A stretch of DNA of 64,000 nucleotides from Bacilli bacterium (GCA_017397685.1 JAFQID010000029.1:1931-65930); one strand, 5' to 3'. Numbered from the stretch's first letter, positions 7,722 through 25,547 are shown. Notes: generated by a model from the letters alone, not told the origin. Translations and numbers: made by a program.

Positions 7722-7985
7722 TTATCTATGCATACTATTAGATTCTTCTATTTCTTCACCTGCTAAAGTTTTTACTAAATTTAAATAATAAGCATAGTCT
7801 TCTGGTGTTAAAGTAGCAACATCTACTACCTTGTATCCATTTGCTTGTGCATAAGCTTGAACATTTTTATACTCATTTTGATATTTTTTTACTCTTTCAT
7901 CATTTGCTGCAAGAGTCTTTTGTTCAACAAATATTATTTTCTGATCATCATCTTGACCCCAATAAGAATAACAACTCATTTCCAT
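7722..7985 (-). CDS. Hypothetical protein, about 87 aa
   Basis: The track ORF starts at 8030, but a TATGATATAAT promoter lies inside that extension. RBS TTGGAG precedes the ATG at 7985 (MEMSCYSYWGQ...). Confidence 0.55.
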   Translation of the reverse strand: MEMSCYSYWGQDDDQKIIFVEQKTLAANDERVKKYQNEYKNVQAYAQANGYKVVDVATLTPEDYAYYLNLVKTLAGEEIEESNSMHR

Positions 7986-10623: not shown

Positions 10624-10836
10624 TTAACTCAATCACCAATACCGTTTTGGCACTGAACACAATTTTATCTCTTTTTTTAAAACAAATCTCTGCAAAGCCT
10701 TATAAATAAAGGAAACACCGTATTTCTTCACCATACAAAATTTTTGTATTTTTACCCCATTTTTGGGTATTTAGATACCTTTTAGATACTCAGTGGAAGG
10801 TATCCAGAAAGGTATCAAAAGTATTTTGCAAAGTTT
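10624..10836 (-). repeat. T2 element, copy b
   Basis: Same module order as the other T2 copies, with the near-palindrome GGTATTTAGATACC at 10766-10779. It lies directly 3' (minus sense) of secA-tail copy A4, just as T2-d follows the real secA. Confidence 0.85.
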
Positions 10837-10845
10837 TTGAAAATT

Positions 10846-10919
10846 AAAAAACCCCTAATTTTATGGGGTTTTAGCTATTTACCACAACATTGTTTATATT
10901 TTTTACCACTGCCACATGT
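10846..10919 (-). repeat. secA-tail copy A4 (45-mer at 10875-10919) with its terminator
   Basis: Encodes TCGSGKKYKQCCGK with a TAG stop. The hairpin is CCCC-TAATTTTA-TGGGG plus a T-run. Confidence 0.85.
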
Positions 10920-11028: not shown

Positions 11029-11053
11029 TAAGTACTATGTGTTCACGAGCGTT

Positions 11054-11075
11054 TGCACACAAATTGCACACATTA
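11054..11075 (-). repeat. Iteron pair, TGCACACA family
   Basis: TGCACACAAAT TGCACACATTA. It matches the cluster at 14860-14905. Confidence 0.8.
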
Positions 11076-11142
11076 TATCATCAGCATTCGTCTCTAAATA
11101 CATTATATCATGTTTTTATATATATTCATATTATTATCATCA

Positions 11143-11757
11143 TTATGATAAAGATAATCTTTTTATACTTTGTTTTAAATAAGTATTTTTGTACCATTCA
11201 GCAAATAATTCAGTTGCAGATGTATGTCCATCATTTCTATTCTTTCTTTCTTCATCAGACATTTCAGCTAAAGTTTTATCACAATTATCTGGTACAAATA
11301 CATACCATAAGTTAGATTTTGCTCTTTTTATTGAATCTCCTCTTTTACTGTATGCTAATGTTCCACTACTTACTCCATAAAAAGTATAAAAATCATTACC
11401 ATCATAAAAAGTTAAACAATCAATAAATTTGCAGGTTCTATTAGTCTCATCCTTCATTGTTTCAAGTAATCCTTCTATATCTGAACTTATTCCACTTCTC
11501 TTAACAAATGCTCCAGGATATCCAGGATTATTTGGATAATTATCTATATAAAATCCTGTATCAGCTACAAAACAAGGTGTTTGTAAAATGTTATATGCAT
11601 CCAATGCTTTTTTTCTTGATATTTTTTCAATATCATTTATTTCAATTTCTTCAAAGTCATATTCATAAAAGTCTATACCTATATTTTTTTCTTCAAAATA
11701 TTCTTTAACTGAAACATATTTACCATAATTTCCAGTTACATAAATTATATTTTTCAT
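11143..11757 (-). CDS. Ham1/RdgB-like non-canonical NTP pyrophosphatase, divergent
   Basis: VTGNYGKYVSVKEYF, ADTGFYIDNYPNNPGYPGAFVKR and a KNRNDGHTSA tail resemble the ITPase motifs (TGNxxK, DDSGL..PG.YSAR, KN.ISHR). Confidence 0.55.
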   Translation of the reverse strand: MKNIIYVTGNYGKYVSVKEYFEEKNIGIDFYEYDFEEIEINDIEKISRKKALDAYNILQTPCFVADTGFYIDNYPNNPGYPGAFVKRSGISSDIEGLLETMKDETNRTCKFIDCLTFYDGNDFYTFYGVSSGTLAYSKRGDSIKRAKSNLWYVFVPDNCDKTLAEMSDEERKNRNDGHTSATELFAEWYKNTYLKQSIKRLSLS

Positions 11758-11758
11758 T

Positions 11759-12679
11759 TTACATCTCTCCTCTAAAATTATATAGTTTTTTTACTAGTTT
11801 TGGATTGTATTCTGGTTGAGTTAAATCAATACCTTTATCATCAGCAATTTTCTTAGATAAAAAGTACATTTGTAACATAAGATAATACTCTTTCCAAAAA
11901 TAGTCTTCTTTTATATTTTCTGTATCAAAAATAGATAGATTGGAATATTCTTTATTTATTAATTCAATTAATATATTATCTAGTTCTCTTCTTTGATGAC
12001 ATAAATAGATAACATGACTATCAGGATACTGAAATAACAAATTGCTTCTTCCATGACAATATGAACCTTTATCGTGCATAACTGGTGCTGCTAATCCAGT
12101 TTCAACTAAATTAGATTCTAAAACACCACTAGATGTTTTTGTTTCATAACCACTCATTATTTGAATTAAAGACACATCTTTGAAATTAACTGTTATTTTA
12201 TCTATTTTCTCTCTACTTCTATTTAGTAATTCTTTTATCTTATCATTTATTTTTTTTATTTCATCAGATGCTATTTCCGTATTTAATGAAGTAGTTGCAT
12301 CTAACATTAATGTTATTGGTCCAAAACTAGACGCTAATGAAATAAAACTCTTTTCTATTTGATATTTTTCATTACCCCAAGAAACAACTTGATAACCTAC
12401 TTCTTGATTATTTTGAGTAATTAAAAATTTAGTACCATTAAAATCATCCAACACATCTTTAATACCATTTGTATTTCCACTTGTAGAAATTGCTATTAAA
12501 TTTGAAAATTTATTTCTATTAGTCTTATAAAAATAATCTCTTGGTTCTATCACTTCACAAATAATTCCATCGATTCCTAATCTTTCTATAATTAATTGTA
12601 AATAATATGCAACGACTTTTGATCCTCCTGTTGCAATTATTAATGTTGGATTTTTATCAATTGTTAATTGATATAACAT
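11759..12679 (-). CDS. SIS-domain-like protein; the 5' end probably extends to about 12787 with a non-ATG start
   Basis: IATGGSKVVAYYL and IAISTSGNTNG resemble the SIS motifs. The frame stays open upstream to RBS AAGGAGG (12798-12804), with ATA/ATT codons 7-13 nt after it. Confidence 0.45.
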   Translation of the reverse strand: MLYQLTIDKNPTLIIATGGSKVVAYYLQLIIERLGIDGIICEVIEPRDYFYKTNRNKFSNLIAISTSGNTNGIKDVLDDFNGTKFLITQNNQEVGYQVVSWGNEKYQIEKSFISLASSFGPITLMLDATTSLNTEIASDEIKKINDKIKELLNRSREKIDKITVNFKDVSLIQIMSGYETKTSSGVLESNLVETGLAAPVMHDKGSYCHGRSNLLFQYPDSHVIYLCHQRRELDNILIELINKEYSNLSIFDTENIKEDYFWKEYYLMLQMYFLSKKIADDKGIDLTQPEYNPKLVKKLYNFRGEM

Positions 12680-12843
12680 TTTTCTAATATCATTAGCTTT
12701 ATTTAATAATGGATCATTTATACTTAATATTCTTTTTTCTAATTTTGAAAAATTTATTTCTGATGGTTCTGTATGTGTATGTTTAATTATTATAAAACCT
12801 CCTTCTTAATTAAATCTTAACAAAGAAAGAGGTAATATATATG

Positions 12844-13326
12844 TCAGTTATAAAAATTTTCTAATATTTCTATTGATTTTATTCTATTTATATAAAAATG
12901 TCTTATTTCATCTTTTAGTTCACAATAAGCTGCTACTCCCCATTCATTACCCAAAAGAATTAAATCATAAGGATGAATAGTTCTACTTGTAAGTTTTTCT
13001 TCATTTTTAGAATAATACTCTATTAAACATTTTCTTTTTTCTTTAATCGCCCTATTTATTAGATTAAATAAATTTTTATCTTTTACATTTATTTCATTTG
13101 GTGTAATAAACCTTTTTGGAACACTTACATTTTGATTTAAAACATATCCACCATAAGGTCCTTTGATAGTATCTATATAAATACCTGCCTTTTCTATTTC
13201 ATCTTTATATACTCTAATCATCCTAGGAGTAACTTCTAATTTTTCAGACAATTCAGCAATACTATATTTTCTTCCTGTACTTAAATACTCAATCATAGTA
13301 AGTACATTACTAATTTTAGACATCAT
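12844..13326 (-). CDS. Short HTH-WYL transcriptional regulator
   Basis: The N-terminal winged HTH reads YSIAELSEKLEVTPRMIRVYKDEIEKAG. The C-terminal WYL-like domain reads RTIHPYDLILLGNEWGVAAYCELKDEIRHFYINRI. Confidence 0.7.
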   Translation of the reverse strand: MMSKISNVLTMIEYLSTGRKYSIAELSEKLEVTPRMIRVYKDEIEKAGIYIDTIKGPYGGYVLNQNVSVPKRFITPNEINVKDKNLFNLINRAIKEKRKCLIEYYSKNEEKLTSRTIHPYDLILLGNEWGVAAYCELKDEIRHFYINRIKSIEILENFYN

Positions 13327-13409
13327 ATCACCACCAATGTATCAATCTTATATCATATATATTTATACTAATTATATTACTAAAATCTATTATTTATAAT
13401 ATCATTCAA

Positions 13410-14705
13410 TTATCTATTTTTCGTTCCCATCATTGCATATAAAATTTTTTCAATATCAGATGATGAAGTCTCTCCTTTTATTAAACCAGTATCAGCGCTT
13501 GAGAACAATAATGCCAGTATTTTATTATTTACTTCTTCATCAGTTAAATTGCCATTATTTATTAAAGATAGATAGAAATAAGTTAATGCATACTTTTGTT
13601 TATATTCAGTTTCTAAATGTTTAGATGACATTAAAAGCTTTACAAAAATTCTCAAGAAATATAATGCAATTGAAATTATAGAAATAATTATAAATCCAGC
13701 TGGAATATTAATATTATTATTAAATATAGTAATTTCTAAAATTGTTTTATCTCCAAATTCAATTTTAGGACTTATGATTAGATACAATAAAATAATTATA
13801 AATATAACTATACCGCCTACTATAAAGCTATATTTTTTTACTTCTGCCTTATATTTATTAGCCTCGTTTTGCATATGTTCTGCCGGTTTAATAACTTTTA
13901 ATTTTTCCTCATATGTTTTTTCTATGTTTTGTAATCTTCTTTCAGCATCTTCTTCAAAACTATCAAATCTAACTTTAGCATCATTGCTAAAGTTACTATA
14001 ATCAGTTCTTACTTTTTCAAACCAATCCCTTTCTGCTTTTTTTACTTCTGACATATATTCTATGTATTCTTGTTTTTCATTTTCAATAGCAGTTATTGCT
14101 GTTGAATAAGCATTATTTATTTTGTCTATCTCTGTTTTAGATACTGATTTTCTAGTTAATGATTTATAATCATTTTCTCCAATCCTAAATCCCAAATAAG
14201 AAAATGCAACTTCACGTTCAATTTCATCACTACTGTTTATAGTTGATGTCAAATTAGAATTACTAGTTAATAAATTTATATAAATTTCTATACCTCTAAT
14301 ATCATATTTATCATATATATATTTTAATACTGTAAAAGATTTATATGACTTATTTTCATTTAAGCTATCTATAAAAATAAAATTTAATTTTTTACTATTA
14401 TTATAATCTAATCCTAGTTTATTTCGAATATTACTTTCAATATTTCTTTTTAAAGTATCTTCATCTTCTAATTCCATTAGTGAAGTAATCCAAGATTCTA
14501 TTTTTGTTATTTCAGCATTTATATAATTAGCATATGGTTCTATTTTATCTTTATATAATAATAAATTACTTTTAAAAAATGTTTTTAATTCAGTTAGATT
14601 ATTAAACTTTTTTGTTTTATTCAATTTATCTTTCAATATAATATTATTTTTTAAAATATGATTACTTATATTATTTTCAATATCAATCTTCTTCATTTCA
14701 ATCAA
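13410..14705 (-). CDS. Coiled-coil protein with two C-terminal TM helices, unknown function
   Basis: 431 aa. The N-terminal 290 aa are Lys/Glu-rich and helical. TM segments are FIVGGIVIFIIILLYLII and AGFIIISIISIALYFL. The start is TTG at 14705 or ATG at 14696. Confidence 0.6.
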   Translation of the reverse strand: MIEMKKIDIENNISNHILKNNIILKDKLNKTKKFNNLTELKTFFKSNLLLYKDKIEPYANYINAEITKIESWITSLMELEDEDTLKRNIESNIRNKLGLDYNNSKKLNFIFIDSLNENKSYKSFTVLKYIYDKYDIRGIEIYINLLTSNSNLTSTINSSDEIEREVAFSYLGFRIGENDYKSLTRKSVSKTEIDKINNAYSTAITAIENEKQEYIEYMSEVKKAERDWFEKVRTDYSNFSNDAKVRFDSFEEDAERRLQNIEKTYEEKLKVIKPAEHMQNEANKYKAEVKKYSFIVGGIVIFIIILLYLIISPKIEFGDKTILEITIFNNNINIPAGFIIISIISIALYFLRIFVKLLMSSKHLETEYKQKYALTYFYLSLINNGNLTDEEVNNKILALLFSSADTGLIKGETSSSDIEKILYAMMGTKNR

Positions 14706-14859
14706 AACTCCCTGCTTATTTTAAATTCGCTCAATTAATACTGATTATTATATCATAAAATAAAAACATTTCATATATAATACAAAAAAATATGTACTAA
14801 TGCTGACTTTTCTTTGTTTACATAACTAAAATCCTTTGTTTATAAGGGTAAATATAAAA

Positions 14860-14905
14860 TGTGTGCATAAATTTTTATATCATGCACACATTTTGCACAC
14901 AAATT
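14860..14905 (-). repeat. TGCACACA-family inverted and direct repeats
   Basis: TGTGTGCAT (14860-14868) and ATGCACACA (14882-14890) form an inverted repeat. The tandem TGCACACATTTT GCACACAAATT lies at 14883-14905. Confidence 0.8.
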
Positions 14906-14954
14906 AGCGTTTTTGGACAAAAATTGACCATTTTTATGAATTTTTTAATTTTTC

Positions 14955-15034
14955 AAAATCTCGCAAGCCCTTATTTTATGGACTTTCAGCTATTTACCAC
15001 AACATTGTTTGTATTTCTTGCCGGACCCACATGG
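14955..15034 (-). repeat. secA-tail copy A5 (45-mer at 14990-15034) with a degenerate terminator
   Basis: CCATGTGGGTCCGGCAAGAAATACAAACAATGTTGTGGTAAATAG encodes PCGSGKKYKQCCGK*. Ser is recoded AGT to TCC. An in-frame stop lies 13 codons upstream and there is no start. Confidence 0.9.
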
Positions 15035-15140: not shown

Positions 15141-15162
15141 CTTATCTAAAAACTTATCTAAT
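15141..15162 (-). repeat. Iteron pair, TTATCT family
   Basis: CTTATCTAAAAA CTTATCTAAT. It overlaps the pepF stop codon. Confidence 0.85.
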
Positions 15163-16842
15163 TTTATATTTCAATAATTTTTTTTCTAACATTTTAGATA
15201 AACATTTTATACTTTCTTCATCAAATGGATTATACATATTATATTTTTCAATAATACTTTTAAATGGATAATATGAAGCTATTGAGCCAATATTTTCAAA
15301 CATATTCATATCTTTTTCACACCCATCAAAAATAGCAAATGCTCCGAAATAAGATAACGCATAATCAATGTAATAAAATGGATCTAACATTATATGACTT
15401 TGTCTATAAAAATATCCCCCTGTTTCTAAATTTATGTGACCTTGATTATTTTTATCAAATTTATACTTTTTCGATAATTCTAACCATGTTATTCTTAAAT
15501 CCTCTTTTTTTAAATTTTTATTTGAGTATATTTGTTCTTGGAATTCATCAACCAAGCAAACATAAGGAATCACACTTACTAAATTATATATTTTCATAAA
15601 ACAATATTTTTTATAATCTTCTGCAGAAAACAAACTATCAGAATAATTCATACAAATAAGTTCCATTGCATATGAAAACATTTCTGCAATATCAAAAGTT
15701 GGATATTTTAATAACGAAGAAACTACATAATTTTTATCTTTAATTCCAGCATGATATTTTTGATATGCGTGTCCAAATTCATGAGAAACTGTTTGTATAT
15801 CTAAATAAGAATTTTTAAAATTACCAGTTATAACAGGCATAGCAGATTCAGTCAAATAATTAGTAATAGCAAAATTAACTTTATTATCTCTTGTTTCTAA
15901 ATCAATGTATCCATTTTCTAACATTTCTATATAAAATTTATATAGATCACTATCTATTTTTTTTAAAGTTTCTCCAAATTTAACCAATAATGCTTTTCCG
16001 TTAAATAATATTACAGGCATTTCTTTAAAATAAATAGTATCAAAATATTCAATATTTTCTATATCTAATTCTTGGTTTTTCCATTCATTTAGTTTCTTAC
16101 ATAAAGGAACTAGGTATCTTATGACACCATTTCTAAAATTAGATATATCTAAATAATTGTATCCAAATCTTCTTAATTTATACAAACTATATATTGAATA
16201 ATTTTCAAACCCTAGTTTACTAGCTATTTCATTTCTAACATTAACTAAATTAAATAAAATTTCATCTAATTCTGCTTGATTATTATAATAAAAATCGTTA
16301 ACAGCATCATGTGCTCGTTTTCTTACAGTTCTATCCTTATCAGAAAAAAATCCACTAACATAAGCCAAATTTCTTTCTTCACCATCAAATAATATTTTTT
16401 CTCTTATTATTTTTCTATATTCTGTTTTTAAATCACTTTCTACTTTTTGTAACTCTATTATTTTATCAGAAGTTATTCTTACTTGAAGTTCAATTGTGTT
16501 GAAAAAATTTTCTGGCACAATTTCCTTTAATTGTTCTTTAAATCTTGAATCTATACACAATTTATAAAAAGGTTTAAATAACAAATCAAATTTGGGCTTG
16601 TATTCATTCCAAAAAATTATTTCATGTTCAAAATACTCATCATTAGAATCTCTCATATTTCTTATATCAGCATAGTCATACATTTCTTCTATATGATTTT
16701 GAATTTTTATAATTTCCTTAAAAGTTGAAAGATATTTTTCATATGTTTGAGCAGTTTCTAATCTTGTTATTAATAAATTTAATTTTTCTTCTATAACTTC
16801 ATAATTTGGTCTAATATATTTTATTTGATCAAATTTAATCAT
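15154..16842 (-). CDS. pepF: Oligoendopeptidase F (M3B family)
   Basis: Zinc motif HEFGHAYQ in a roughly 560-aa protein. ATG at 16842 follows RBS GAAGGTGG; the track start at 16851 is GTG. Confidence 0.85.
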   Translation of the reverse strand: MIKFDQIKYIRPNYEVIEEKLNLLITRLETAQTYEKYLSTFKEIIKIQNHIEEMYDYADIRNMRDSNDEYFEHEIIFWNEYKPKFDLLFKPFYKLCIDSRFKEQLKEIVPENFFNTIELQVRITSDKIIELQKVESDLKTEYRKIIREKILFDGEERNLAYVSGFFSDKDRTVRKRAHDAVNDFYYNNQAELDEILFNLVNVRNEIASKLGFENYSIYSLYKLRRFGYNYLDISNFRNGVIRYLVPLCKKLNEWKNQELDIENIEYFDTIYFKEMPVILFNGKALLVKFGETLKKIDSDLYKFYIEMLENGYIDLETRDNKVNFAITNYLTESAMPVITGNFKNSYLDIQTVSHEFGHAYQKYHAGIKDKNYVVSSLLKYPTFDIAEMFSYAMELICMNYSDSLFSAEDYKKYCFMKIYNLVSVIPYVCLVDEFQEQIYSNKNLKKEDLRITWLELSKKYKFDKNNQGHINLETGGYFYRQSHIMLDPFYYIDYALSYFGAFAIFDGCEKDMNMFENIGSIASYYPFKSIIEKYNMYNPFDEESIKCLSKMLEKKLLKYKIR

Positions 16843-16954
16843 TAATACCACCTTCTTTATTATTATATCATATACCTGACCAGAACTATGCTGGGAATGG
16901 TCAATTTTCTATTTTTCTTTTATTTATAGGTATTTCAGAGTACTTATTAAATTT

Positions 16955-22981: not shown

Positions 22982-25474
22982 TTACTTACCACAACATTGT
23001 TTGTACTTTTTGCCACTGCCACATGGACACGGATCATTTCTTCCAATCTTATTACCTACTGTCTTAGGTTTCTTTTGAACTTTTTCCTTCCCATCATTAG
23101 TTCTAATATTCTTAACTTCATGACGCTCTATATTTTGTCTAACCTCAGCTTTCAATAAAAATTGTGATATTTCCGCATTTGTAGAAGCAATCATTCTATC
23201 AAACAAATCAAATCCTTCTAAAGCATATACCTGAAGAGGATTAGATTGAGCATAACCACGAAGCCCCACACCTTCTTTTAAATTTTCCATCGCATCTAGC
23301 TGATTCATCCAATTTTTATCCAAAATTCTAAGAGTAATAGACTTTTCAAAATCATCTTGTAGTTCATCAGGAAAATCCTTCATTTTCTCATCATAATCTT
23401 TAATAACAACATCATATATCTTACTTATAAGTTCTTCATTATTTAAATCTTCTAAATCATTTTTTACTAATTTTTCTTTCTTAAGTAAATTAGCATTAAA
23501 AACCTCAACTATATTATCTAAATCATTACTAGTAATAACTCCCTCTGGGGCAATATGACTGTTTACTTCATAAGAAACAAAATCTTTAAAAGTATTAAGT
23601 ATTCTATCTCTTATACTCTCATTATCAAGTATTTCATTTCTTCTATCATAAATAATCTCTCTTTGTTTACTAATTACATTATCAAAATCTAATAAACCTT
23701 TTCTTCTGTCAAAATTGAATCCTTCAACTTTCTTCTGAGCAGTCTCAAGATTTTTAGAAATCATTTTATTTGAAATAGCTTGGTCTTCTGCCACTCCCAA
23801 AGAAATCATAACACTTTTCATTCTTTCAGAACCAAACTTAATCATCAAATCATCTTCCATAGATACAAAGAATCTAGAGGTACCAGGATCTCCTTGTCTT
23901 CCAGCACGTCCTCTTAACTGATTATCAATTCTTCTAGAATCATGTCTTTCAGTACCAAGAACATAAAGCCCACCTAGTTCTCTAACACCTTCACCAAGTT
24001 TAATATCCGTACCACGTCCTGCCATATTAGTCGCAATAGTAACAGCATTTAACTTTCCAGCATTTTCTATTATACTTGCTTCACGTTCATGGTTCTTAGC
24101 ATTTAATAGTTCATGCTTAACTCCAGCTTTAGTTAATAATTGATCTACAACCTCACTCATTTCAACAGAAGCAACACCAATTAAAACTGGTCTACCACTT
24201 TTATGTATCTCTTTAACAGTTCTAACAAGAGCTGTAAGCTTACCGTTCATTGATGAATAAATTAAATCAACAAGATCTTCTCTTATAACAGGTTTATTTG
24301 TAGGGATACATACTACATTAGTATTATAAATATCAACAAACTCTTCTTCCTCAGTTTTAGCCGTACCAGTCATACCAGAAAGTTTATTATACATTCTAAA
24401 TAAATTTTGAAAAGTTATTGTCGCTAAAGTCTTAGTCTCTTCATTAATTTCAACACCTTCTTTAGCTTCTAAAGCTTGATGTAATCCTTCACTAAACTGT
24501 CTTCCATGCATTAATCTACCAGTAAATGTATCAACAATAACAACTTTTCCATTATCAACAACATAATCAACATCTCTCTTAAATGCATAATTAGCAATCA
24601 AAGCTTTATCAATATTATGTACTAAAGAACTATTTTCAATATCATACAAATTAGTTAAATTCAAAACTTTTTCTAGTTTTTGAACACCTTCTTCAGTAAG
24701 AGTTACTTTCTTTGTTTTTTCATCTATTACATAATCATCTATTTTAAGATTTTTAACAGTTCTATCAGCATCTTTATAAATATTAGATGACTTTTGAGCA
24801 CCACCAGATATAATCAAAGGAGTTCTAGCTTCATCTATTAAAATAGAATCAACTTCATCAATTATCGCAAAATTTAGTCCCCTTTGAACTCTCCTTTCAC
24901 TTCTAACAACCATATTATCACGTAAATAATCAAAACCAAGCTCATTATTAGTTGTATAAGTAATGTCCGCATTATAAGCCTCTTTCTTTTCAAGAGGGGA
25001 TTTATCTCTAATATTTATGCCTACACTTATACCAAGAAATTCATAAATAGGTCCCATCCATTCAGCATTTCTCGTAGATAAATATTCATTAGTAGTTATA
25101 ACATGAACCCCAAGTCCACTCAGAGCATTTAGATATGCCGGTAAAACAGTAGTTAAAGTCTTACCTTCACCAGTTTTCATTTCAGCAATATTACCACGAT
25201 GAATCGCAACACCACCAATAAGTTGAACTCTGAAAGGTTTTTCTTTTAAAACTCTAAAACAAGCTTCTCTCGCAACCGCAAAAGCTTCTACTAAAATATC
25301 ATCAAGACTCTCCCCTTTTTCAAGTCTACTTTTAAACTCATCAGTTTTAGCTTTTAATTCAACATCTGTTAAAGACTGCATCTTATCATCTAATAACTCT
25401 ATTTCATCAACAATTTTGTTAATCCTTTTTAATTCTTTTGTTTCATAATCAAATATGCTTTTAAATAATTTCAT
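22982..25474 (-). CDS. secA: Preprotein translocase ATPase SecA
   Basis: DEAD-like motor motifs (MKTGEGKT, DEVDSILIDEARTPLIISG, TNMAGRGTDI) and the C-terminal zinc motif CPCGSGKKYKQCCGK. ATG at 25474 follows RBS GAGGTGG; the track start is 25486. Confidence 0.97.
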   Translation of the reverse strand: MKLFKSIFDYETKELKRINKIVDEIELLDDKMQSLTDVELKAKTDEFKSRLEKGESLDDILVEAFAVAREACFRVLKEKPFRVQLIGGVAIHRGNIAEMKTGEGKTLTTVLPAYLNALSGLGVHVITTNEYLSTRNAEWMGPIYEFLGISVGINIRDKSPLEKKEAYNADITYTTNNELGFDYLRDNMVVRSERRVQRGLNFAIIDEVDSILIDEARTPLIISGGAQKSSNIYKDADRTVKNLKIDDYVIDEKTKKVTLTEEGVQKLEKVLNLTNLYDIENSSLVHNIDKALIANYAFKRDVDYVVDNGKVVIVDTFTGRLMHGRQFSEGLHQALEAKEGVEINEETKTLATITFQNLFRMYNKLSGMTGTAKTEEEEFVDIYNTNVVCIPTNKPVIREDLVDLIYSSMNGKLTALVRTVKEIHKSGRPVLIGVASVEMSEVVDQLLTKAGVKHELLNAKNHEREASIIENAGKLNAVTIATNMAGRGTDIKLGEGVRELGGLYVLGTERHDSRRIDNQLRGRAGRQGDPGTSRFFVSMEDDLMIKFGSERMKSVMISLGVAEDQAISNKMISKNLETAQKKVEGFNFDRRKGLLDFDNVISKQREIIYDRRNEILDNESIRDRILNTFKDFVSYEVNSHIAPEGVITSNDLDNIVEVFNANLLKKEKLVKNDLEDLNNEELISKIYDVVIKDYDEKMKDFPDELQDDFEKSITLRILDKNWMNQLDAMENLKEGVGLRGYAQSNPLQVYALEGFDLFDRMIASTNAEISQFLLKAEVRQNIERHEVKNIRTNDGKEKVQKKPKTVGNKIGRNDPCPCGSGKKYKQCCGK

Positions 25475-25547
25475 AAGCCACCTCATAATAAATTATATCA
25501 AAAAAGAGTTAATATACCAATAACTCTTTTTAATTTCACAAAATTTA

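Follow-up and report, generated by a model that had tools for sequence, protein, structure and literature searches.

A mobile WYL–SIS–Ham1 cassette beside a stand-alone AbiZ-type gene in the secA-tail array of a gut Bacilli bacterium

Introduction

How many systems are encoded by a block of four genes lodged between two displaced copies of the 3′ end of secA, and what do they do? The block lies in a 64,000-nucleotide (nt) stretch of DNA (GCA_017397685.1 JAFQID010000029.1:1931-65930; hereafter called the window) from an uncultured gut Bacilli bacterium, the genome of which is 1.27 Mb long, 94% complete and ~25% in G+C content. Four minus-strand open reading frames (ORFs; 13410–14705, 12844–13326, 11759–12679 and 11143–11757) fill positions 11143–14705, within an accretion array downstream of secA (22982–25486). 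A preliminary description of the window read them as a 431-residue membrane protein followed by an operon for a helix-turn-helix (HTH)–WYL regulator, a SIS-fold protein and a Ham1/ITPase-like enzyme, and proposed that the four together form a nucleotide-depleting or nucleotide-signal-degrading module. The four genes, and the 1-nt junction between SIS and Ham1, are present as claimed. Here we report that the islet consists of two independent cargoes of the secA-tail array: a stand-alone AbiZ-type gene and a mobile WYL–SIS–Ham1 cassette, which may be a regulated unit for nucleotide clean-up or repair.

Results

A self-contained three-gene cassette

The WYL, SIS and Ham1 genes constitute a self-contained three-gene cassette, spanning approximately 11052–13395, with the following features.

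13327..13395, minus strand: cassette promoter and leader, with the extended −10 box TGATATAAG at ~13356–13348; left boundary of the horizontally shared block
12844..13326, minus strand: short HTH–WYL regulator, 159–160 residues, with Pfam HTH_11 at residues 9–61 and WYL at residues 86–154
12791..12839, minus strand: conserved hairpin in the WYL–SIS gap, the 3′ arm of which is the SIS Shine–Dalgarno sequence AAGAAGGAGG, followed by a U-run
11759..12790, minus strand: putative double-SIS enzyme of a small unnamed family, 343 residues, with a Glu230/His246 pair, a GGS loop and an SxSGxT loop; start codon ATA
11143..11757, minus strand: divergent nucleoside triphosphate (NTP) pyrophosphatase of the Ham1/ITPase fold, 204 residues, with its own GGAG box
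11054..11131, no strand assigned: 3′ end of the cassette, with the outward-facing promoter-like box TGATATAAT and two tandem TGTGTGCA iterons; right boundary of the similarity to relatives

Fifty-six related loci were collected by searching the GTDB species genomes with the SIS protein, and the window proteins were mapped onto them by tblastn. SIS and Ham1 are adjacent in 50 of the 54 informative loci, and in 53 of 55 WYL immediately precedes them; the order and the spacing do not vary. When all 736 ORFs of the related loci were clustered, WYL was recovered in 52 loci, SIS in 52 and Ham1 in 48, and no further cluster occurred in more than six. Since the next commonest cluster is found in only six loci, the flanks of the cassette are unrelated from locus to locus. 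The WYL protein is 61–92% identical across these loci. The co-conservation expected for all four genes is thereby seen for WYL, SIS and Ham1, but not for the membrane protein: its homologue, identified below as AbiZ, lies within 8 kb of WYL, SIS and Ham1 in none of the 56 loci searched by tblastn.

Gene fusions, together with this strong co-conservation, support the reading of WYL–SIS–Ham1 as an operon. The protein P0152 (493 residues) is a Ham1–SIS fusion, the Ham1 half of which is 59% identical to the window Ham1 and carries the same unusual motifs, and P0183 is a second, divergent Ham1–SIS fusion. The existence of these fusions argues that Ham1 and SIS work together, and several members of the SIS family are fused to a PfkB sugar kinase. 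Partial forms (WYL–Ham1 and WYL–SIS) also exist, which argues that neither Ham1 nor SIS strictly needs its partner. Within the window's own genus, SIS is cleanly deleted from two loci (L081 and L082), leaving WYL–hairpin–Ham1, and a third locus (L084) holds Ham1 alone, in a frameshifted form. Other species of the genus possess a longer WYL protein (200 residues) and a 33%-identical SIS protein, with no Ham1. The same genus also contains 651–652-residue fusions of a PfkB sugar kinase with a distant SIS protein (L009:1492-3447 and L010:1492-3450); judged by eye from their N-termini, the neighbour of one is small and phosphoribosyltransferase-like, and that of the other is Y-family polymerase-like.

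A search of 1.84 billion representative proteins at E ≤ 0.001 yields 201 members of the SIS family, which seems confined to one group of gut Bacilli; the names of the related genomes include Clostridium sp. CAG:628 and Candidatus Ventrenecus. The parts of the cassette belong to known superfamilies, with an unnamed SIS branch and a re-specialized Ham1 branch. Neither PADLOC nor the searched literature yielded the combination of SIS and Ham1 with a minimal WYL regulator and a putative hairpin gate, and the preliminary description, which had not recognized the combination, was right in this respect. Literature searches for Ham1 with SIS and WYL, and for ITPase with anti-phage activity, returned only Kongming and Cad1.

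The Ham1 protein

Does the Ham1 protein retain the machinery of a pyrophosphatase? The gene begins with an ATG at 11757, 1 nt past the SIS stop codon (11759–11761). Its product matches Pfam PF01725 with an E-value of 1.1e-22 (81.3 bits, against a gathering score of 22.5), in keeping with the earlier domain call, but it fails every NCBIfam equivalog cut-off, the best score being 97.6 bits against 203. The structural model has a predicted local distance difference test (pLDDT) score of 90.8, and Foldseek superposes it with TM-scores of 0.79–0.87 on Mj0226 (1b78), PH1917 (1v7r/2dvo) and PfHam1 (8ji1 among the matches), and with TM-scores of 0.76–0.84 on the structures of KomB, the Ham1-like protein of the Kongming system. 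Its sequence matches the ITPases of archaea and eukaryotes better (E 2e-14) than it matches KomB (E 6e-10).

Six residues, N10, K13, E37, K50, D66 and R107, are invariant in 38 cassette Ham1 copies. In the alignment, N10, K13, E37, K50 and D66 correspond to the canonical catalytic Asp and to the N-x-x-K, Glu and Lys ligands of the phosphates and the metal. As compared with the canonical RdgB of related genomes, however, GFGYDP is replaced by KSNLWxVF, with four additional residues, and SHR is replaced by D-x-H-T-S-A. Judging from the alignment and the model, the cassette Ham1 looks like an active pyrophosphatase in which the base pocket has been rebuilt. It resembles RdgB, Ham1 and ITPA in its fold, in its catalytic and phosphate/Mg residues, and in often being the sole family member of its genome. 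It differs from them in lacking the GFGYDP and SHR base-recognition motifs, in scoring below the equivalog cut-offs, in being gated by WYL and a hairpin, in being partnered with or fused to a double-SIS enzyme, and in its horizontal mobility.

An intermediate Ham1 type (186 residues, ~110 bits), with a GWCWDFIF motif and no SHR, was observed in L083 (G002:C2, 1–4555), where it stands in an apparent operon with genes that, by eye from their N-termini, include two deoxynucleoside monophosphate kinase-like genes, QueC and a phosphoribosyltransferase-like gene. This operon could represent a 7-deazapurine nucleotide route. The intermediate type is present in place of the canonical RdgB in several genomes of the window's genus.

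The SIS protein

The SIS protein has no Pfam match, and its NCBIfam score is only 19 bits against a cut-off of 214; its fold, as proposed in the preliminary description, was nevertheless confirmed by structure prediction. The AlphaFold model, built from a 58-sequence alignment, has a pLDDT of 93.5 and a double-SIS fold. The best Foldseek matches in the PDB are 2aml (Lmo0035), FrlB (3eua and 8glr), GlmD, NagB-II and the isomerase domain of GlmS, with TM-scores of 0.6–0.72; the E-values for 2aml, 3eua, 8glr, 2cb0, 8fdb and 1moq range from 1e-10 to 3e-13.

The residues G55, G56, S57, E230, H246 and G247 are invariant in the 58 sequences, and the SxSGxT loop reads STSGNT. In the profile-to-PDB alignment, E230 and H246 fall on the Glu and His of Bacillus subtilis FrlB (3eua), and they also align with 2aml. 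The same 16-residue spacing separates E224 from H240 in FrlB and E488 from H504 in GlmS (PMC10285752), as well as E214 from H230 in FraB (PMC12359202). Taken from the conserved residues and the predicted fold, the SIS protein looks like an active enzyme acting on a phosphosugar or a phosphosugar-amine. It shares with FrlB, FraB and GlmS the double-SIS fold, the invariant Glu and His 16 residues apart, and the GGS and SxSGxT phosphate loops, and the fusion of its distant family members to PfkB kinases recalls the frl and fra operons with their PfkB kinases FrlD and FraD. In contrast to these enzymes, it has a 37-residue N-terminal helical extension and no Pfam SIS match, and it is only ~15% identical to them; the cassette has no conserved transporter or kinase neighbour, and the partner of the SIS protein is a nucleotide pyrophosphatase.

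Where does SIS translation begin in the window? The gene has 343 codons in nearly all relatives, but the homologous start codon is ATA here (12790–12788) where the relatives have ATG, and therefore the ORF callers give 306 residues (11759–12679). No in-frame ATG, GTG or TTG lies upstream of this ATA in the window. Translation must accordingly begin at a weak AUA or AUU codon or else at Met38, in which case one and a half helices would be missing. Since the ATG has been lost here and SIS has been deleted from two sister genomes (L081 and L082), the gene is apparently being lost in the window's genus, where SIS appears dispensable or decaying.

A minimal WYL regulator and a putative hairpin gate

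The HTH–WYL call also held, with an E-value of 1.4e-17 for the WYL domain in Pfam; the best PADLOC match of the protein is the CRISPR-associated WYL model (E 3e-30). This regulator is the sole WYL gene found by the search of the genome. It ends six residues past the WYL domain, without a WCX domain. In most of 50 relatives, a TGnTATAAT box precedes WYL at a constant distance, and the cassette thus appears to possess a promoter of its own.

The 53 nt from the WYL stop to the SIS start fold with a minimum free energy of −18.9 kcal/mol (z −4.75), and none of 200 shuffled sequences is as stable. The same fold is obtained in 40 of 42 distinct relatives when each is folded individually, with varying loops and inner stems (for example CCAC...GUGG in L039). 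The stem begins at a constant 10–13 nt past the WYL stop (~12 nt in the window), preceded by the invariant ACAUAUAUAUU and followed by the U-run. RNAalifold, applied to the MAFFT alignment of the intergenic element, yields a weak consensus, owing to insertions and deletions in the 3′ arm. We infer from the sequence that the hairpin serves as a terminator-like gate, which sequesters the ribosome-binding site (RBS) of SIS. A ribosome terminating on WYL would melt the 5′ arm of the hairpin, and the enzymes would be made only when WYL is translated. The unmelted hairpin would block SIS initiation, and may end transcription as well.

Mobility and insertion sites

From 13365 to 11052, the window is 91.5% identical in DNA sequence to one related locus (L011) over 2317 nt, although the SecA proteins of the two share only 62% identity. 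This discrepancy argues that the cassette was recently moved by horizontal transfer. The nucleotide similarity to L011, L026 and L038 begins at 13365–13395, i.e., 40–70 nt upstream of WYL (~40 nt for the closest relative). Since the similarity to L011 starts at 13365, the mobile block excludes the AbiZ-type gene, and the earlier assignment of the membrane protein to the system fails on this ground as well as on its absence from the related loci.

The cassette adjoins secA or copies of the secA tail in the window, L011–L014, L026 and L049. In L039 and L040 (Candidatus Ventrenecus), it starts at ~7850–7900, directly after the 3′ end of a tRNA (GGTTCGAATCC...CCA), and a tRNA 3′ end thereby joins the secA tail as another type of integration hot spot. 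Among phages and plasmids, INPHARED and PLSDB gave no match to the SIS protein by tblastn, and a peptide-pattern scan of IMG/VR found no SIS relative, both searches having limited sensitivity for distant relatives. The ESM Atlas returned unnamed and generic SIS clusters only; in one small cluster, one of the two taxonomically assigned members is viral, which is too thin to use.

The AbiZ-type gene and the secA-tail array

Outside the cassette, the islet and its borders contain the following features.

14940..15034, minus strand: displaced copy of the secA 3′ end (tail A5; repeat family D7), ending in a SEC-C motif (...CGSGKKYKQCCGK and stop), followed by a terminator-like hairpin
14856..14901, no strand assigned: cluster of TGTGTGCA/TGCACACA iterons, with an inverted repeat flanking a TATAAA box, upstream of the AbiZ-type gene
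13410..14705, minus strand: AbiZ/DUF6161-family abortive-infection gene, 431 residues from a TTG, identified by PADLOC and Pfam profiles and by hydropathy
10825..10919, minus strand: displaced copy of the secA 3′ end (tail A4; repeat family D7), with a terminator at 10853–10868

What is the membrane protein? Residues 29–423 of the 431-residue product match positions 17–394 of the 398 in the PADLOC AbiZ profile (PDLC02354; E 7e-34), and the protein matches Pfam DUF6161 (PF19658) with an E-value of 2.5e-38 (132 bits, against a cut-off of 27). It has two transmembrane (TM) segments at ~293–313 and ~335–357, within the Kyte–Doolittle segments 287–319 and 330–361. The preliminary description had counted these two helices correctly but had placed them at the C-terminus; ~75 residues follow them. 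The ATG at 14696 is the likelier start, and is preferable to the TTG. From its sequence, the protein appears to be a stand-alone AbiZ/DUF6161 abortive-infection homologue that is not part of the cassette. Lactococcal AbiZ has been described as the product of a single gene that aborts infection and accelerates lysis (Durmaz and Klaenhammer 2007, as cited in PMC13064643), and, according to PMC13064643, the premature-lysis/abortive-infection phenotype of the family is known only from the lactococcal protein. The window gene resembles AbiZ of Lactococcus lactis pTR2030 in its full-length profile match, its DUF6161 domain and its two TM helices. It differs from the lactococcal gene in being chromosomal and placed in a secA-tail array of an uncultured gut Bacilli bacterium.

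The iterons that the preliminary description saw bracketing the block are indeed there: TGCACACA occurs five times in the window against an expectation of 0.74, a count that none of 100 shuffles reaches, and all five copies lie at the two ends of the block (two in 11054–11072 and three in 14860–14901). A perfect 13-nt inverted repeat (14856–14868/14882–14894) is located within the cluster upstream of the AbiZ-type gene. This cluster is probably an operator or a junction element of the secA-tail array and not specific to the cassette; a homologous element is found downstream of Ham1 in L011. The TGATATAAT box followed by tandem TGTGTGCA iterons lies directly downstream of Ham1 in L011–L013 as it does in the window, and in L011 (9646–9810) the sequence after the iterons continues as a homologue of the leader (14803–14945) that precedes the window AbiZ-type gene. 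Because the box and the iterons recur in this position, with L011 continuing into the AbiZ-leader homologue, the iteron element appears to travel with the 3′ end of the cassette, and it may drive whatever is downstream. In a scan for promoters and terminators, the sites were no commoner than in shuffled sequences, and no terminator was found within the four-gene block. In the neighbouring islet, just upstream of tail A5, a 565-residue gene (15154–16851) carries an HExxH motif (HEFGH), read in the translation.

Discussion

Comparison with known systems

Does the cassette belong to a known system? Kongming consists of the adenosine deaminase KomA, the HAM1-like dITP sensor KomB and the SIR2 NADase KomC, and in its defensive HAM1 clade the catalytic Asp is invariably replaced by His and a SIR2 gene invariably accompanies the HAM1 gene (bioRxiv 10.1101/2024.12.20.629578). 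Both Kongming and the present cassette are three-gene units built around a non-housekeeping Ham1 fold, and both are mobile; the placement of the cassette may, like that of Kongming, resemble a defence island. The cassette Ham1, however, keeps D66 where KomB has His, and its partners are SIS and WYL, with no SIR2 or deaminase; SIR2 is absent from the 25 commonest families of the 98 immediate neighbours. Membership in Kongming was rejected on these two grounds, the retained catalytic Asp and the lack of a SIR2 partner.

The WYL protein shares with BrxR, CapW, PafBC and DriD an N-terminal HTH followed by WYL, and a position immediately upstream of its presumed target genes. BrxR and CapW are proteins of ~290 residues with a WCX dimerization domain, whereas the window regulator has 160 residues without WCX, and the control by the hairpin is added; membership in the BrxR/CapW group was rejected for want of the WCX domain. 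PADLOC 2.0 gave no match for Ham1 and a best E-value of 0.0016 for SIS (NDT_II-A), and returned only a generic WYL match and the separate AbiZ match.

A possible clean-up unit

What, then, does the cassette do? We put at about even the chance that it is a regulated nucleotide clean-up or repair unit, working in the following manner, in which the substrates, the WYL ligand and the mode of hairpin opening are those that we infer. The gene identities, the folds, the conserved catalytic residues, the co-conservation, the gene fusions, the hairpin and the mobility are shown by the analysis above.

Gating: The short HTH–WYL regulator would be transcribed from the cassette's own promoter. With the SIS RBS buried in the hairpin, the enzymes would be expressed only if the regulator is translated or the hairpin is otherwise opened.

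Pyrophosphate removal: Ham1 and the SIS enzyme most likely share one abnormal nucleotide as their target. By releasing pyrophosphate from it, Ham1 would keep this nucleotide out of nucleic acids.

Sugar processing: The SIS enzyme would isomerize or cleave the phosphosugar(-amine) part of the abnormal nucleotide, or of a by-product.

Which genomes carry the cassette bears on this reading. The preliminary description had set its proposed system against an ordinary housekeeping context of nucleotide sanitation, and such a context is found in part: PF01725 has no match in the window genome (G000) other than the cassette Ham1, which is the only strong Ham1 there and in 13 of the 15 other cassette-bearing genomes, i.e., in 14 of 16, the canonical RdgB also being present in only two of the 15. 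This favours clean-up over phage defence, and since most of the genomes tested have no other strong Ham1-family gene, clean-up is at least as likely as defence. Of 24 cassette-free genomes belonging to the genus, 11 have the canonical RdgB, as do 14 of 16 other genera of the class, although all of these RdgB counts come from related, incomplete metagenome-assembled genomes without phylogenetic correction, which weakens the case. Clean-up is also favoured by the persistence of the partial forms and by the immediate neighbours of the cassette: these are often NUDIX (six), UDG (two) and ASCH (two) genes, and an HD-type gene, recognized by eye from its N-terminus, adjoins WYL in L002, L004 and L081.

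Several further points weigh against clean-up. No known pathway joins Ham1 with an FrlB/GlmS-type enzyme. With its base pocket changed, the cassette Ham1 may not hydrolyse ITP or XTP at all, and the argument that it replaces RdgB is weakened because the changed pocket may exclude these nucleotides. The loss of the SIS ATG may have impaired the two-enzyme route in the window genome. Moreover, the variable, apparently defence-rich sites, the tight gating and the horizontal transfer fit a defence module too.

Alternative explanations

Could the cassette instead be an anti-phage defence system, with a WYL gate that opens on infection or DNA damage? In such a system, the re-specialized Ham1 would deplete the nucleotide pool or destroy a phage-specific modified (d)NTP, and SIS would process or sense the phosphosugar part. 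We regard this as possible but less probable than clean-up. The distribution is patchy, the transfer is recent, and the cassette is inserted at hot spots, namely the secA-tail arrays (window, L011–L014, L026 and L049) and the tRNA (L039/L040). Its neighbours, tallied with no background control, appear enriched in defence and mobile genes: AbiZ in the window, AbiD in L011, and elsewhere RhuM, ThsB-TIR, type I restriction–modification specificity, DUF1848 and Mob_Pre, together with housekeeping genes. The cassette appears doubly gated, and double gating is typical of harmful effectors; the base pocket of Ham1 has been remodelled. WYL regulators gate BREX and CBASS (PMC9122601, PMC9122588 and PMC11662680), but the present regulator lacks the WCX domain of BrxR and CapW. 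Ham1 proteins can serve immunity, as in Kongming (bioRxiv 10.1101/2024.12.20.629578), yet here Ham1 is usually the sole Ham1 of its genome, neither it nor SIS has a significant PADLOC match, and there is no obvious cell-killing effector. Relatives were not found in INPHARED, PLSDB or IMG/VR by searches of limited sensitivity for distant ones, the family of 201 representatives seems limited to the one gut Bacilli group, and partial versions (WYL–Ham1, WYL–SIS and SIS alone) persist. Neither nucleotide depletion nor the degradation of a nucleotide signal, the activities suggested in the preliminary description, is directly supported. An enlargement of the system to four components, with the AbiZ-like protein joined to WYL–SIS–Ham1, is highly improbable. 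The cassette appears to have its own conserved promoter, the nucleotide similarity to relatives stops 40–70 nt upstream of WYL, and the lactococcal AbiZ is reported to work by itself (Durmaz and Klaenhammer 2007, as cited in PMC13064643); the four-gene system was rejected on the absence of AbiZ, within 8 kb, from all 56 related loci, even though the genes are adjacent on the same strand with no strong terminator between them, the same iterons occur at both ends of the block, and another Abi gene, AbiD, holds the same upstream position in L011.

A small catabolic or salvage route for a gut compound, such as an Amadori/fructosamine-type or aminosugar–nucleoside conjugate, is also conceivable, with SIS as a deglycase or isomerase and Ham1 trimming the nucleotide-linked form. 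We consider this unlikely. Although the nearest folds are FrlB/FraB, NagB-II and GlmD, and the PfkB sugar kinase–SIS fusions mirror FrlD–FrlB, the Ham1–SIS fusions point to a nucleotide substrate, and it is not evident what an NTP pyrophosphatase would contribute to the use of a nutrient. Such a route would suit the hosts, which live in the gut and have reduced genomes, but the ORF clustering of the related loci reveals no transporter, phosphotransferase system or kinase conserved beside the cassette. Catabolic operons are usually under GntR, RpiR or LacI regulators; the regulator here is WYL.

Within a gated two-enzyme scheme, a more specific substrate can tentatively be proposed: the cassette would recognize and dismantle a purine nucleotide to whose base a phosphosugar is attached, such as a glycated or phosphoribosylated (d)NTP arising from damage or from a phage. 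The pyrophosphate would be taken off by Ham1 and the sugar phosphate by the FrlB-like enzyme, and the minimal WYL protein would open the RBS-hiding hairpin. This speculative version is considerably less secure than the clean-up reading in general.

Implications

Ham1/ITPase enzymes are regarded as simple housekeeping proteins, and to our knowledge the sensing of dITP by the inactive KomB of Kongming is the only other role described for the Ham1 fold. In the cassette, a Ham1 that is apparently active and has a rebuilt pocket is paired, and sometimes fused, with a new branch of the FrlB/GlmS type, under the control of a WYL regulator and a hairpin. The hairpin, placed directly after the WYL stop, would be a compact case of combined transcriptional and translational gating. 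The window separates a recognizable AbiZ defence gene from the cassette and presents the latter as cargo of a secA-tail array. The cassette itself passes among gut Bacilli that are uncultured and have very small genomes. The substrate of the cassette would reveal either a new repair of damaged nucleotides, possibly by the removal of sugar adducts, or a new nucleotide-targeting defence.

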